The notes under the pieces were generated by a model. The model made no database searches, had not been told where the DNA came from, and saw only the letters and a program-made list of their open reading frames with translations. Below are positions 3,793-60,838 of a stretch of DNA of 64,000 nucleotides, one piece after another. Source of the stretch: Bacteroidota bacterium (GTDB taxonomy: Bacteria > Bacteroidota > Bacteroidia > Flavobacteriales_F > PHOS-HE28); NCBI GenBank assembly GCA_018267055.1, contig JAFDZF010000081.1, forward strand, positions 3,345-67,344, in the 5' to 3' direction. The translations under genes were made by a program, and so were the position numbers. Position 1 is the stretch's first letter, and every line of letters starts with the position of its first letter.

Positions 3793-4251
3793 ATGGCCGC
3801 ACGCTCCATCCACACCTGGTTCGCCGAGTACGGCGAGAGCCACCGGAACGCCACCAATACCGCCATCCACTGGATCTGCGTGCCCGCGATCTACTTCAGC
3901 ATCGTGGGCCTGATCATGAGCATCCCCTCGCCCGGCGTGCCCTACCTCTGGGCCTGGCTCGCGCTCGCGGGCGTGATGCTCTTCTACGTCCGGCGGTCGG
4001 TGCTCCTGGCCGTGGGCATGCTGGCGTGGAGCCTGTTCTGCGTAGGGCTCGCGCACGTCCTGCGTGGGCATGCCCCGTGGCCGCTCTGGTCGATCGGCCT
4101 GGCGGTGTTCGCCCTGGCGTGGGTGGGCCAGTTCTATGGGCACCGCATCGAAGGCCGGAAGCCCAGCTTCCTCAAGGACCTGCAGTTCCTGCTGATCGGT
4201 CCCGCCTGGCTGATGGCCAAGGTCTATGCGCGGCTGGGCGTCCGTTACTGA
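3793..4251 (+). CDS. DUF962 / Mpo1-like membrane protein
   Basis: 'YGESHRNATNTAIHWICVP' and 'GHRIEGRKPSFLKDLQFLLIGPAW' motifs, 3-4 TM helices. Starts 3 nt after the previous stop. Confidence 0.7.
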   Translation: MAARSIHTWFAEYGESHRNATNTAIHWICVPAIYFSIVGLIMSIPSPGVPYLWAWLALAGVMLFYVRRSVLLAVGMLAWSLFCVGLAHVLRGHAPWPLWSIGLAVFALAWVGQFYGHRIEGRKPSFLKDLQFLLIGPAWLMAKVYARLGVRY

Positions 4252-56263: not shown

Positions 56264-56710
56264 TCACTCCTCCACCACCTCGAAGGGGATGGCCTTCACC
56301 ACATCGCGGTGGAAGGTGACCTCGGCCTCGTACTTGCCGATGGTCTTGATGGCCTCGCCTTTCAGCTTGATGTACTTGCGGTCGATGTCGACACCGAGCA
56401 GCTTGAAGGCATCGCTGAGCATGATGGTGTTCACGCTGCCGAAGATGCGGCCCTTCTCGCCCACTTTCGCGCCGATCTTGATCGTCTTGGAGGCGAGCGC
56501 CTCCGCGTTCTTGTCGGCCTCGGCACGCACCTTGGCCTCCTTGTGGGCGCGCTGCTTCAGCGTTTCGCTGAGCTGCTTGCGCTCGCTGGTGGTGGCCGCC
56601 ACGGCCAGGCCGCGGGGCAGCAGGAAGTTGCGGGCGTAGCCGTCACGCACCTTCACCACGTCGTTCGCGAAGCCCAGGTGCTCCACGTCTTGTTTGAGGA
56701 TGACTTCCAT
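56264..56710 (-). CDS. rplI: 50S ribosomal protein L9
   Basis: 'MEVILKQDVEHLGFANDVVKVRDGYARNFLLPRGLA'. Confidence 0.95.
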   Translation of the reverse strand: MEVILKQDVEHLGFANDVVKVRDGYARNFLLPRGLAVAATTSERKQLSETLKQRAHKEAKVRAEADKNAEALASKTIKIGAKVGEKGRIFGSVNTIMLSDAFKLLGVDIDRKYIKLKGEAIKTIGKYEAEVTFHRDVVKAIPFEVVEE

Positions 56711-56720
56711 GGTCGTTGGC

Positions 56721-57044
56721 TTATTTGAGCATGTCGGCCACGTACGGCATCAGGGCCAGGTGGCGGCTGCGCTTGATGGCCTGGCTGACCTTCTTCTGGT
56801 ACTTCTGGCTGGTGCCGGTGAGGCGGCGGGGCAGGATCTTGCCCTGCTCGTTCACCAGGCGCAGGAGGAAGTCGGCGTCCTTGTAGTCGATGTACGTGAT
56901 GCCGAGCTTCTTGAAGCGGCAGTACTTCTCCTTCTTGGTCTCGATGGAGATCGGCGTGAGGTAGCGGATCTCGTTGTTGGCACCGCCGCCCTGCGTGGGG
57001 GCAGGGGTCGGGGCGGGAGCCGGGGTCGTCGTCGTTTCGCTCAT
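56721..57044 (-). CDS. rpsR: 30S ribosomal protein S18 (with Thr/Pro/Ala-rich N-terminal extension)
   Basis: '[14 protein letters not shown]...[42 protein letters not shown]'. Confidence 0.93.
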
Positions 57045-57056
57045 GACCGATGGATG

Positions 57057-57446
57057 TTAGTTGTCGACGTTCTCCTTCTTCTTGCGGGGAGCGCGCGCCT
57101 CGGCACCCTCTTCGTTGCCACCGCGTCCGCGGCGGCTCTCGGCGAAGGCGATGTGGTGCTTGTCCATGGCCACGGTGAGGAAGCGGATCACGCGTTCGTC
57201 ACGGCGGTATTCGGTCTCGAGCTTCTCGATGAACGCAGGTTCGCTCTCGAACTCGATCAGGTGGTAGAAGCCCGAGGACTTCTTCTGGATGGGATACGCG
57301 AGCTTGCGCATCCCCCAGCTCTCTTCGTGGCGGATCTTTCCACGGCCTTTTTTCACAAGGTCTTTGAATTTGCTTACCGCCTCCTTTGTCTGATCCTCAG
57401 ACAAAACGGGAGTCAAGATGAAGACGGTCTCGTACCGGTTGGACAT
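57057..57446 (-). CDS. rpsF: 30S ribosomal protein S6
   Basis: '[15 protein letters not shown]...[22 protein letters not shown]'. Internal ATG 57446. Confidence 0.93.
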
Positions 57447-57470
57447 GATGCCTCTTGGTAATTGGGGGTG

Positions 57471-57478
57471 CGAAAGTA
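57471..57478 (-). promoter_or_regulatory. -7-type promoter box TACTTTCG (rpsF-rpsR-rplI operon)
   Basis: 24 nt upstream of ATG 57446. Confidence 0.4.
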
Positions 57479-57630
57479 AGCAATTCCTCAGAACCCACAA
57501 GCCCTGAGGCTCAAGGGGCTAGCGGGAGGTCTCGGGCCGCCGGTCGCCCGCAGGCCGTGAACGCCCAGCGACGGAGCGCCCCCTTCAACACGTGTTGAGA
57601 TCTAGGGCCGGATACCGGAGGCGCACCGAA

Positions 57631-57653: not shown

Positions 57654-59477
57654 ATGGTCATCCCGATGGAACGCTTCGTCGTCAGCGCCCGCAAGTACCG
57701 CCCCGCCCTCTTCGACACCGTGGTCGGCCAGGAGGCCGTGACCGGCACGCTGAAGAACGCCATCAAGAACGACCACCTGGCCCAGGCCTTCCTGTTCACC
57801 GGCCCGCGGGGGGTGGGCAAGACCACCTGCGCCCGCATCCTGGCCCGCACGATCAACTGTGAGAACCTGGGGCCGGACCTGGTCCCCTGCGGCACCTGCG
57901 CCCCCTGCAGGACCTTCGACGAGGGGCATTCGCTGAACATCTTCGAGCTGGATGCCGCCAGCAACAACAGCGTCGACGACATCCGCAACCTGATCCTCCA
58001 GGTGCAGATCGCCCCCCAGGTGGGCACCAAGAAGGTGTACATCATCGACGAGGTGCACATGCTCAGCTCGGCGGCCTTCAATGCCTTCCTGAAGACCCTG
58101 GAGGAGCCGCCGTCGTACGCCATCTTCATCCTGGCCACCACGGAGAAGCACAAGATCCTGCCCACCATCCTGAGCCGCTGCCAGGTGTTCGACTTCCGGC
58201 GGATCACCGTGGGCGACATCGCCAAGCACCTGGCCGGCATCGCGCAGAAGGAGGGCATCGAGGCCGAGCCGCAAGCCCTGCACACCATCGCCCAGAAGGC
58301 CGACGGCGGCCTCCGCGACGCGCTGAGCATCTTCGACCAGCTGGTGAGCTTCGCCGGCCACCGGCTGACCTACCAGGACGTGGTGAAGAACCTGAACGTG
58401 CTGGACCACGAGCACTACTTCAGCCTCACCGACCAGCTGCTCCAGGGCAATACCGCCGGCGCCCTCGTGGAGTTCAACACCATCCTCTTCCAGGGCTTCG
58501 ACGGGCACCTGTTCGTGACCGGGCTGGCCAGGCACTTCCGCGACCTGCTGGTGAGCCAGGACCCGCGCACCATCCCGCTGCTGGAGGTGAGCGAGGACCT
58601 GGGCGTCCGTTACGCCCAACAGGCGCAGGCCGTGCCGCGCGACCTGCTGGTCAAGGGATTGGAACGCCTGGGCCAGGTGGACACCCAGTACAAGAACAGC
58701 AAGGAGCCCCGCCTGCTGGTGGAGCTGGCCCTGATCCAGCTCTCGCGCCTGCATGCAGGTGACGGAGGGCACACGGCCGCCCTGGCCGAAGCGGCGCCTG
58801 AGGCTCAAAAAAAAAGTCCTGACGTGACCTCGGCGGCCTCCCCGGACGTTGTTCCAGGGCCGGCCGCTCCTGTCCCCGCTCCTCCGGCCGTGGTGCCGGT
58901 GGCCTACGAAGCGCCGCCCGTCGCGGCCCCCGTGGCTTCCGCCCCTCCCCCGCATCCGGCCCCCGCGCCGAGCCCGGCCCCGGTGCGCCGACTGGCAGGG
59001 AACGTCTCCATCAAACAGACGCTGGAACGCCCGGCCGAAAGCCTGGTGGCCGAGCCCGCGCCGCTGATGGACGCTCCCGGCACAGAGCCCGCGACGCCCG
59101 ACGGACCGGTACGCGCCCTGAACCTGGCCCTGCTGCTGAAGACCTGGAAGGACTACGCCCTGGCCCGCAAGCGCGAGGGCAAGAACAGCCTGCACGCCAC
59201 GCTCACCGCCCATGAGCCCATGATCGCCGGGCCGCGCACCATCTCCTTCTCCATCGTGAACGCGGTGCAGGAGAACTACATGCGCGAGGAGAAACCCACG
59301 CTGCTGGGCCACCTCCGCCGCGAGCTGGGCGATCCCGGGCTGGACCTGAACGTGGTGAAGGAGGAGATCACCGACCTCCGCCCCCGCTACACGCCCAAGG
59401 ACAAGTTCGCCATCCTGGCGGAGAAGAACCCGGCGCTGTTGGGGCTGCGCGATGCGCTGGACCTGGACCTCGGGTAG
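57654..59477 (+). CDS. dnaX: DNA polymerase III subunit tau (gamma/tau)
   Basis: 'RKYRPALFDTVVGQEAV', Walker A 'GPRGVGKTT', Zn module 'CENLGPDLVPCGTCAPC', 'IIDEVHML', 'ILATTE', 'SRC'. A proline-rich linker follows aa ~388. Alternative start is ATG 57666. Confidence 0.94.
   Translation: MVIPMERFVVSARKYRPALFDTVVGQEAVTGTLKNAIKNDHLAQAFLFTGPRGVGKTTCARILARTINCENLGPDLVPCGTCAPCRTFDEGHSLNIFELDAASNNSVDDIRNLILQVQIAPQVGTKKVYIIDEVHMLSSAAFNAFLKTLEEPPSYAIFILATTEKHKILPTILSRCQVFDFRRITVGDIAKHLAGIAQKEGIEAEPQALHTIAQKADGGLRDALSIFDQLVSFAGHRLTYQDVVKNLNVLDHEHYFSLTDQLLQGNTAGALVEFNTILFQGFDGHLFVTGLARHFRDLLVSQDPRTIPLLEVSEDLGVRYAQQAQAVPRDLLVKGLERLGQVDTQYKNSKEPRLLVELALIQLSRLHAGDGGHTAALAEAAPEAQKKSPDVTSAASPDVVPGPAAPVPAPPAVVPVAYEAPPVAAPVASAPPPHPAPAPSPAPVRRLAGNVSIKQTLERPAESLVAEPAPLMDAPGTEPATPDGPVRALNLALLLKTWKDYALARKREGKNSLHATLTAHEPMIAGPRTISFSIVNAVQENYMREEKPTLLGHLRRELGDPGLDLNVVKEEITDLRPRYTPKDKFAILAEKNPALLGLRDALDLDLG
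58807..58815 (+). other. dnaX: A9 homopolymer (slippery A AAA AAA A) inside dnaX: candidate recoding/transcriptional-slippage site
   Basis: Zero frame reads gct caa aaa aaa agt cct gac. The -1 frame reads aaa aaa aag tcc TGA (stop 58820-58822). The +1 frame reads aaa gtc ctg acg TGA (stop 58825-58827). It is the only A-run of 7 or more that I saw in the window. Confidence 0.6.
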
Positions 59478-59611: not shown

Positions 59612-60838
59612 ATGGCGAAGATCAAGGTGACGAACCCCGTTGTCGAGCTGGATGGCGATGAGATGACCCGCATCATCTGGCGGTGGATCAAGGAACAGCT
59701 GGTCCTGCCGTACGTGGAGGTGCCCATCGACTACTACGACCTCGGCATCGAGCACCGCGACGCCACGGACGACAAGGTGACGGTGGACGCCGCCAAGGCG
59801 ATCCAGAAGCACAACGTGGGCATCAAGTGCGCCACCATCACGCCGGACGAGGCGCGCGTGCAGGAGTTCGGCCTGAAGCAGATGTGGAAGAGCCCCAACG
59901 GCACCATCCGCAACATCCTCAACGGCACCGTGTTCCGCGAGCCGATCGTGATCGACAACATCCCGCGCCTGGTGCCGGGCTGGACCAAGCCCATCGTGAT
60001 CGGGCGCCACGCCTTCGGCGACCAGTACCGCGCCACCGATGCGGTGATCAAGGGCAAGGGCAAGCTCACCATGACCTTCACGCCCGAGGGCGGCGGCGAG
60101 GCCACCACGTGGAACGTCTACGACTTCGAGGGCAACGGCGTGGCCCTGAGCATGTACAACACGGAGGAGAGCATCGAGGGCTTCGCACGCAGCTGCTTCA
60201 ACCTGGCGCTGCAGAAGAAGTGGCCGCTCTATTTCAGCAGCAAGAACACCATCCTGAAGAAGTACGACGGCCGTTTCAAGGACATCTTCCAGGGCATCTA
60301 CGAGAAGGACTACGCCGCCGCGTTCAAGGAGGCCGGCATCACTTACGAGCACCGCCTGATCGACGACATGGTGGCCAGCGCGCTGAAGTGGAACGGCGGC
60401 TTCATCTGGGCCTGCAAGAACTACGACGGTGACGTGCAGAGCGACATCGTGGCGCAGGGCTTCGGGTCGCTGGGCCTGATGACCTCGGTACTGGTCACCC
60501 CCGACGGCAAGACCATCGAGGCGGAGGCCGCGCACGGCACGGTGACGCGCCACTACCGCATGCACCAGGAAGGCAAGCCCACCAGCACCAACCCCATCGC
60601 CAGCATCTTCGCCTGGACGCAGGGGTTGGCCTTCCGCGGCAAGCTGGACGGCAATGGGCCGCTGGTGGAATTCGCCAAGAAGCTGGAGCAGGTCTGCATC
60701 GACACCGTGAAGGCCGGGAAGATGACCAAGGACCTCGCGGCCTGCATCCACGGCGAGAAGGTGACGGCCGACAAGTACCTGACGACGGAGGCCTTCATGG
60801 CCGCGCTGCGCGAGGAGCTGGAGAAGCGGCTGAAGTAG
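59612..60838 (+). CDS. icd: Isocitrate dehydrogenase (NADP), homodimeric eukaryote-like type
   Basis: '[16 protein letters not shown]', '[10 protein letters not shown]', '[21 protein letters not shown]', 'NYDGDVQSD'. Confidence 0.96.

Follow-up and report, generated by a model that had tools for sequence, protein, structure and literature searches.

Results

An A9 run at the gamma/tau boundary of dnaX

We analyzed a 64,000-nucleotide (nt) stretch of the Bacteroidota bacterium assembly GCA_018267055.1 (contig JAFDZF010000081.1, positions 3,345 to 67,344), referred to here as the window, and focused on its dnaX gene, which carries a run of nine adenines (A9) at the boundary between the part predicted to be shared by the two DnaX forms, gamma and tau, and the part specific to tau (Table 1). 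The open reading frame (ORF) at 57654-59477 without doubt encodes a dnaX (gamma/tau) orthologue. Its product matches Pfam DNA_pol3_delta2 (1.2e-45), DNAX_ATPase_lid, and DNA_pol3_gamma3, and it reaches 711.8 bits over amino acids (aa) 5-606 against a cut-off of 685 for the NCBIfam equivalog NF011531/PRK14971.

The nine A's (58807-58815) lie in the sequence ...cctgaggctcAAAAAAAAAgtcctgacgtgacc..., and the layout of 58797-58827 is gcgcct GAGG ctc AAAAAAAAA gtcctgacgtga, with the GAGG at 58800-58803, 3 nt from the run. The zero frame reads CAA (codon 385, 58806-08), AAA (386), AAA (387), and AGT (388), followed by CCT GAC GTG ACC, which gives tau the peptide ...EAQKKSPDVTS (Q385-K-K-S-P-D-V-T). 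The -1 frame reads AAG TCC TGA (58820-22), with a predicted product of 389 aa ending in ...AQKKKS; similarly, the +1 frame reads GTC CTG ACG TGA (58825-27), with a predicted product of 390 aa ending in ...AQKKVLT. The run is thus found at codon 385 of 607, approximately 63% through dnaX, with 220 codons remaining after it; it is located 3' of domain III, whose Pfam match (DNA_pol3_gamma3) ends at about aa 365, and 5' of a Pro/Ala-rich linker. An initial annotation of the window had placed the run, both shifted readings, and the position between the clamp-loader domains and the linker in the same way, and each of these agrees exactly with the sequence.

The same annotation described the run as the only long one of its kind, and A9 is indeed the sole A or T run of at least 7 nt in the 64-kb window, where the G+C content (GC) is 65-71% (67% overall) and a model of independent, identically distributed bases expects 0.01 A9/T9 runs. 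Moreover, codon positions in this dnaX have their next stop at a median of 80 codons in the -1 frame and of 17 in the +1 frame; for only 0.8% of them are the two off-frame stops as near as at A9 (P = 0.008).

Selection on the nucleotides of the site

To describe codon choice, we used the 38 long window ORFs with a coding-like third-codon-position GC (GC3) signature, comprising 18,273 codons. In these ORFs, AAA accounts for 6.3% of the Lys codons, CAA for 9.4% of Gln, AGT for 1.4% of Ser, and CCT for 7.2% of Pro. Every codon of CAA AAA AAA AGT CCT is a rare synonym, and the joint probability of QKKSP being written in this form is 3.9e-7 under the window codon usage.

At the protein level, we compared the best 120 homologues (68-95% identity), the named ones of which belong to Flavobacteriales or to Bacteroidetes bacterium metagenome-assembled genomes (MAGs). 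All 120 keep [E/Q]-KK-[S/N]-P-D or E-KKK-P as an island within the hypervariable linker. The residue before KK is E or Q, both of which have codons that can end in AA, as a nucleotide constraint predicts.

The DNA of relatives was obtained from a metagenome scan with the lineage-specific C-terminal domain, which gave at least 14 loci, two of them without the site, and from the loci of the three nearest proteins (L095-L098, 83-94% nucleotide identity). Together, these sources provided 16 relatives with the site (L081-L089, L091, L092, and L094 from the scan, plus L095-L098), with a GC of 0.52-0.68. The run is A9 in 13 of the 16 and A10 in the other 3, and in all of them GTCCTGA or GCCTGA comes next; it is the only A/T run of at least 7 nt in each relative locus (L081-L098). 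In a MAFFT alignment of 11 relatives, the mean column identity is 48%, CCTGA is invariant, and nearly all of the invariant columns fall in the A-run and CCTGA. Both A9 and the 3' flank are identical in L095-L098, which are independent assemblies from different samples.

The -1 stop of the relatives always lies two codons past the codon with the last A. Additionally, the +1 stop lies 3-6 codons past that codon in 13/13 high-GC loci; it may be TGA, TAG, or TAA, at differing positions, and is therefore maintained independently. The initial annotation had proposed orthologue alignment as a check, and every close relative with DNA has kept the A-run together with the -1 stop and a +1 stop close by, against GC pressure. 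Collectively, codon choice and conservation indicate that selection at the A9 site is on the nucleotides rather than on the peptide.

One further position showed a particular pattern. The T that follows A9-G (window 58817, third base of the AGT codon) does not vary among the 13 A9-type relatives. Among the Ser codons of the window, AGT is used least (1.4%), and AGC would leave both off-frame stops intact. In E. coli, a Pro codon followed by a stop terminates poorly. One possibility is that the invariant T avoids a C-terminal Pro (CCC-UGA) in the -1 product.

The boundary run across Bacteroidota

To place the window gene in its phylum, GTDB species genomes were scanned with the whole protein, and 80 Bacteroidota loci among the matches listed (41-64% identity) were surveyed; their orders include Sphingobacteriales, Cytophagales, Chitinophagales, Flavobacteriales, and Bacteroidales. 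A boundary run was taken as an A-run within approximately 100 codons past domain III. Runs of A9-A13 are present at the boundary in 65/80 loci (58 A10, 4 A9, 2 A11, and 1 A13), and L013 has an A10 just beyond the search span, which raises the count to 66/80. The remaining 14/80 loci, mostly Bacteroidales, are without the tract. Among the A-run loci the length never falls below nine, and away from the boundary only 18 A/T runs of at least 9 nt occur in 551 kb of the survey loci.

Past each run there is exactly one frame without a stop for more than 150 codons; stops end the remaining two within 1-15 codons. For the 65 run loci, the tau frame is zero in 47, -1 in 15, and +1 in 3. The in-frame class thus comprises 47-48 of 65-66 loci, which suggests that it is the majority in Bacteroidota, and tau is out of frame in 18/80 of the listed species. 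In Flavobacteriaceae the two arrangements are mixed: tau is at frame 0 with A10 in Aquimarina, Kordia, and Mariniflexile (L025, L034, and L027), and out of frame in Flavobacterium and Wenyingzhuangia. In particular, Flavobacterium L074 has A9 and tau in the +1 frame, whereas its congeners L068, L073, and L079 have A10 and tau in the -1 frame, a one-base tract change without compensation. Single-base tract changes appear to be tolerated in evolution.

As reported, tau is the essential form (10.1101/2022.11.10.516041). With tau out of frame in 18 loci, efficient shifting in both directions is therefore required there. These out-of-frame loci provide what we regard as the strongest indirect support for shifted products at the in-frame tract of the window.

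RNA structure and the upstream GAGG

A downstream stimulatory structure, which the initial annotation had suggested might be found by folding, did not appear: the fold of 58816-58890 has z = 0.14, that of the upstream 67 nt has z = 0.01, and no RNA structure is conserved. The downstream folds of ten relatives range from z = -2.9 to +1.8, with a stable hairpin in only two, and no match to the Rfam DnaX frameshift element was obtained. The GAGG noted at the outset is present in the window; however, neither its position nor its presence is conserved, and it is probably irrelevant. As a conserved Shine-Dalgarno (SD)-like element it was rejected, since some relatives lack it (e.g., ACCGATC-A9 in L086) and others have it shifted or directly next to the run.

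Other features of the dnaX locus

The coordinates of the dnaX features are collected in Table 1. Upstream of dnaX lies a divergent rpsF-rpsR-rplI cluster (S6, S18, and L9; window 56264-57500, minus strand), and downstream lies an isocitrate dehydrogenase gene (window 59612-60838, plus strand). The same neighbours are found in close relatives where the flank is covered, with Ribosomal_S6 in L095, L096, and L098 and Iso_dh in L098.

Table 1. Features of dnaX around the A9 run, in window coordinates
Feature	Position	Strand	Evidence
dnaX ORF, zero-frame full-length tau, 607 aa	57654..59477	+	ORF list, Pfam, NCBIfam
Segment common to tau and predicted gamma: domains I-III plus ~20 aa, residues 1-387	57654..58814	+	Pfam, frames
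A9 homopolymer, proposed slippage site (template strand T9)	58807..58815	+	
A_AAA_AAA heptamer, in phase, within A9	58808-58814	+	
Conserved 3' flank GTCCTGAC with -1-frame stop TGA (58820-58822)	58816..58823	+	
+1-frame stop TGA, would end the A8 (or A11) transcript product ...KKVLT	58825..58827	+	
Pro/Ala-rich hypervariable linker, tau only	58824..59123	+	Unalignable among relatives outside the slippage island
Conserved C-terminal domain, tau only (Pfam DUF8439 in homologues)	59124..59474	+	tblastn, alignments, AlphaFold2, Foldseek

Based on tblastn and alignments, residues ~491-603 form a domain that is conserved across the phylum, and precomputed Pfam hits label it DUF8439 in homologues. 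The window domain itself gave no Pfam match and, by sequence profile, no match in the Protein Data Bank (PDB). An AlphaFold2 model built from 18 sequences has a pLDDT of 83.5, with low confidence in the first ~17 residues, and shows a predicted alpha/beta fold. Foldseek returned weak but coherent similarities to DnaA domain I (4tps_D, E = 0.04, TM 0.62 on the target; 2e0g) and to DciA (7ykm, 8a3v). A type-II KH fold is reported to be common to DnaA domain I, the N-terminal domain of DciA, and domain V of E. coli DnaX (PMC8216460). The predicted model thus lends modest support to the C-terminus being a tau-specific interaction domain.

Discussion

A Thermus-type slippage cassette as the favoured explanation

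The anatomy of the site, its nucleotide-level conservation, and its distribution across the phylum, with genomes that carry tau out of frame, are direct observations on DNA. We consider it quite probable that selection maintains the A9 tract as a cassette for transcriptional slippage like that of Thermus thermophilus dnaX. Runs of at least nine A's, lineages with tau in the +1 frame, and the closure of both off-frames point to slippage by the polymerase, which inserts as well as deletes A's. In addition, an essential tau placed in the -1 frame in some lineages and in the +1 frame in others needs both insertion- and deletion-type shifts, which agrees with polymerase slippage and not with a -1 ribosomal shift alone. 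We infer the RNA polymerase step as the place of slippage, as well as its efficiency and the existence of two proteins.

In the proposed mechanism, RNA polymerase on the T9 template would realign the nascent A-tract and generate a mixed messenger RNA (mRNA) population. Transcripts with A9 (or A12) would keep the frame and encode tau of 607 aa, with the linker and the C-terminal domain. Transcripts with A10 would put AAG TCC TGA in frame and yield a gamma of 389 aa ending in KKKS, while those with A8 or A11 would put GTC CTG ACG TGA in frame and yield a gamma of about 390 aa ending in KK(K)VLT. Both short products would retain clamp-loader domains I-III and be without the tau-only C-terminal domain. 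Part of the KKKS product may come from -1 ribosomal frameshifting on A_AAA_AAA, which we rate as secondary.

The initial annotation had proposed tau and a gamma of approximately 388-390 aa from one gene by slippage. Sequence comparison supports this part strongly, through the run and stops conserved in relatives and the 18/80 loci out of frame. As to the type of slippage, the in-phase heptamer that the annotation pointed out does exist, but the Thermus-type transcriptional route is favoured here over the X_XXY_YYZ slip of E. coli.

Comparison with known dnaX systems

Transcriptional slippage in T. thermophilus dnaX was reportedly described by Larsen et al. in PNAS in 2000. In that gene, transcripts with A9 or 9+3n give tau and other lengths give gamma, at roughly 1:1 (PMC1088944; PMC5009743). 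All of the sequence features of this type are found in the window: a dnaX orthologue, a sense-strand A9 past domain III, tau in the zero frame, and near stops in both shifted frames. The 3' flanks are nearly identical, with A9-GCCTGA in Thermus (PMC3711429 Suppl. Fig. S3) and A9-GTCCTGA in the window, and the two are alike in having no need for RNA stimulators. The differences are that Thermus belongs to Deinococcota rather than Bacteroidota and is an experimental case, whereas the window gene is known from sequence; furthermore, the window run lies ~63% through the gene, and the tau C-terminus is the lineage-specific DUF8439 instead of Pfam tau domain V.

Within the phylum, Antonov et al. 2013 (PMC3711429) used GeneTack to predict two-ORF A10 dnaX genes in Bacteroidetes, Chlorobi, and Verrucomicrobia, including Flavobacterium johnsoniae, F. 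psychrophilum, Cytophaga hutchinsonii, and Capnocytophaga ochracea (PMC3711429 Suppl. Fig. S3), and proposed programmed transcriptional realignment as the mechanism. The window gene shares with these the phylum, the gene boundary, the poly-A tract, and the proposed mechanism. The decoding is reversed: the two-ORF genes yield gamma by standard decoding and need a shift for tau, whereas the window dnaX is one continuous ORF, with tau as its standard product and a shift needed for gamma. The two-ORF arrangement was found in the 18/80 out-of-frame loci. The dnaX genes reported by Antonov et al. are of the two-ORF kind; that study sought frame transitions at the DNA level, and a gene in frame like that of the window, having none, would not be listed among its fs-genes. 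In the literature searched, we found no paper that describes an in-frame poly-A dnaX class in Bacteroidota. The novelty is modest, since the concept is already established by experiment in Thermus and by prediction in Antonov et al. 2013; the gain lies in breadth and confirmation.

With E. coli dnaX, the window gene has in common the domain III/IV boundary, an in-phase lysine heptamer, an immediate -1 stop, and the same predicted output, a gamma without the tau-specific C-terminus. It differs in that the heptamer is A_AAA_AAA inside a nine-base run instead of A_AAA_AAG, the SD-like element and the stem-loop are not conserved, the +1 frame is closed, and the tau of relatives may lie in the -1 or +1 frame. 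Accordingly, two of the four features that mark the E. coli type, an SD-like stimulator at a suitable spacing and the downstream stem-loop, are missing.

Alternative explanations

Several points weigh against transcriptional slippage in the window. Within the run there is an A_AAA_AAA heptamer in the right phase, and the -1 stop follows at once, so that the ribosome may contribute. The nearness of off-frame stops is individually weak across the 65 low-GC loci (median p 0.09): stops in other frames are common in AT-rich genomes, and the argument is therefore carried by the high-GC clade. Some of the out-of-frame cases come from MAGs, in which homopolymer length errors are possible; isolates of Flavobacterium and the complete genomes of Antonov et al. 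2013 show the same arrangement. Finally, no experimental test of dnaX recoding in Bacteroidota was found in the literature searched. The initial annotation, which called the process not established in this phylum, is right as to experiment but overstated the novelty, since poly-A recoding had already been predicted there (Antonov et al. 2013, PMC3711429).

The in-phase heptamer is also what speaks for a programmed -1 ribosomal frameshift of the E. coli type, in which ribosomes would slip on A_AAA_AAA (58808-58814) of a homogeneous mRNA and terminate at the -1 TGA. This stop is two codons on and invariant in relatives, and in the MAG L020 a run of just six A's forms a true A_AAA_AAG CC TGA, so that a ribosomal route may exist in the phylum. 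As the explanation for the window, we nevertheless regard it as unlikely. The survey runs always contain at least nine A's although a heptamer is enough for the ribosome, the +1-frame stop is maintained as well, and in three lineages tau is in the +1 frame, out of reach of a -1 shift. A conserved downstream stem-loop was not found by folding, the Rfam element was not matched, and the GAGG, which relatives lack or carry elsewhere, is 3 nt rather than ~10 nt from the run. Bacteroidota also make little use of SD pairing, which weighs against the ribosomal route. Moreover, A_AAA_AAA is reported to be much less shift-prone than A_AAA_AAG in E. coli (PMC5009743).

Two explanations do without RNA-level recoding altogether. 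KKSPD might be a motif of the tau peptide, serving in the linker, in processing, or in docking, with the A-run as a by-product and any gamma made by proteolysis. Gamma is known to arise by proteolysis in Caulobacter (PMC5009743; bioRxiv 10.1101/2022.11.10.516041), and KK-SPD is conserved at the protein level in 113/120 close homologues. Yet all five residues are written with the rarest synonymous codons, the preceding residue is E or Q and so always allows xAA, and across the phylum the A-run and the off-frame stops are kept in spite of differing residues past the run; in 18 species, with tau in another frame, the peptide is not even continuous. A peptide motif as the cause is accordingly very improbable. 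No more credible is a hypermutable (contingency) locus at the DNA level, or a run that arose by chance or through an error of sequencing or assembly. Replication slippage is common at A9-A10 tracts, and both length and frame changed between congeners (A9 in L074 versus A10 in L068, L073, and L079). Yet dnaX/tau is essential, and heritable on/off switching would be lethal without correction at the RNA level; 120/120 close homologues are called full-length and in frame. The identical A9 in independent assemblies from different samples (L095-L098) and the expectation of 0.01 per window likewise weigh against this group of explanations, and the artefact and chance readings of A9 were rejected on conservation.

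Possible other recoding variants at the same boundary

Some of the loci examined carry different arrangements at the gamma/tau boundary. Many gut and rumen Bacteroidales lack the A-run and have an in-frame TAG exactly at this point. It is present in three of the survey loci (L050:2788, L052:4099, and L077:4111), followed by a conserved ATTGC[A/T]AGG, and the tau domain continues in the same frame. Two further lineages have TAG at L099-L102:2599-2601 and L103-L105:2629-2631, in the context xxA TAG ATT GCA AGR nCG CCT CRG GCG GAG CAC, with an in-frame ORF of 206-239 codons past the TAG and a weak DUF8439 match in L103-L105. The best 120 homologues of the L052 N-terminal ORF are 348-426 aa long (66 are exactly 366 aa) and therefore end at or shortly past the boundary. 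No conserved structure was found at the TAG site, and the literature searched contained no publication on dnaX with an in-frame TAG. Genome-wide reassignment of TAG is unsupported, as the one other apparent in-frame TAG, in L052, sits in a frame that looks non-coding. The in-frame UAG with its conserved AUUGCAAG context is a candidate for stop-codon readthrough or hopping to tau.

Among loci with shorter or other runs, the MAG L020 (4139-4152) has six A's in the in-phase A_AAA_AAG followed by CC TGA, an E. coli-type heptamer with an immediate -1 stop, and L008 (Pontibacter) has an in-phase A7 with the -1 stop one codon on. In the Bacteroidaceae locus L031 (~4090-4140), the A-run is absent and a G7 run (GCGGGGGGGCGTAG) with a -1-frame TAG is found at the equivalent position. 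In L064 (~4140-4160), the zero frame ends at TGC TAA AAA TCC and a long open frame goes on in +1. L031 and L064 could be other recoding variants or assembly errors.

Implications

A broader hypothesis, which we put forward tentatively and hold as somewhat less than an even prospect, is that Bacteroidota dnaX (and probably that of Chlorobi) may have carried the poly-A tract from its ancestor onward throughout the phylum, with the tau frame drifting repeatedly among 0, -1, and +1 through efficient RNA polymerase slippage. Some lineages would then have replaced the tract by other recoding devices at the same boundary, the in-frame UAG in many gut and rumen Bacteroidales and the A_AAA_AAG heptamer in one MAG. 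If true, nature would offer at this boundary a set of recoding solutions, some transcriptional and some translational, that can stand in for one another in meeting one stoichiometric need.

The favoured explanation of the window tract, transcriptional slippage, makes gamma production testable in a phylum whose replisome is little studied, and the predicted products are exact: DnaX forms of 389 and 390 aa that terminate in KKKS and KKVLT, respectively. That an A9 written with the rarest codons persists in a 67% GC genome is unusually clean evidence for selection of a short DnaX form and is relevant to the old debate over the importance of gamma. In annotation practice, a Bacteroidota dnaX that looks divided or cut short at an A10 tract is not a pseudogene, while an intact one probably codes for two proteins.

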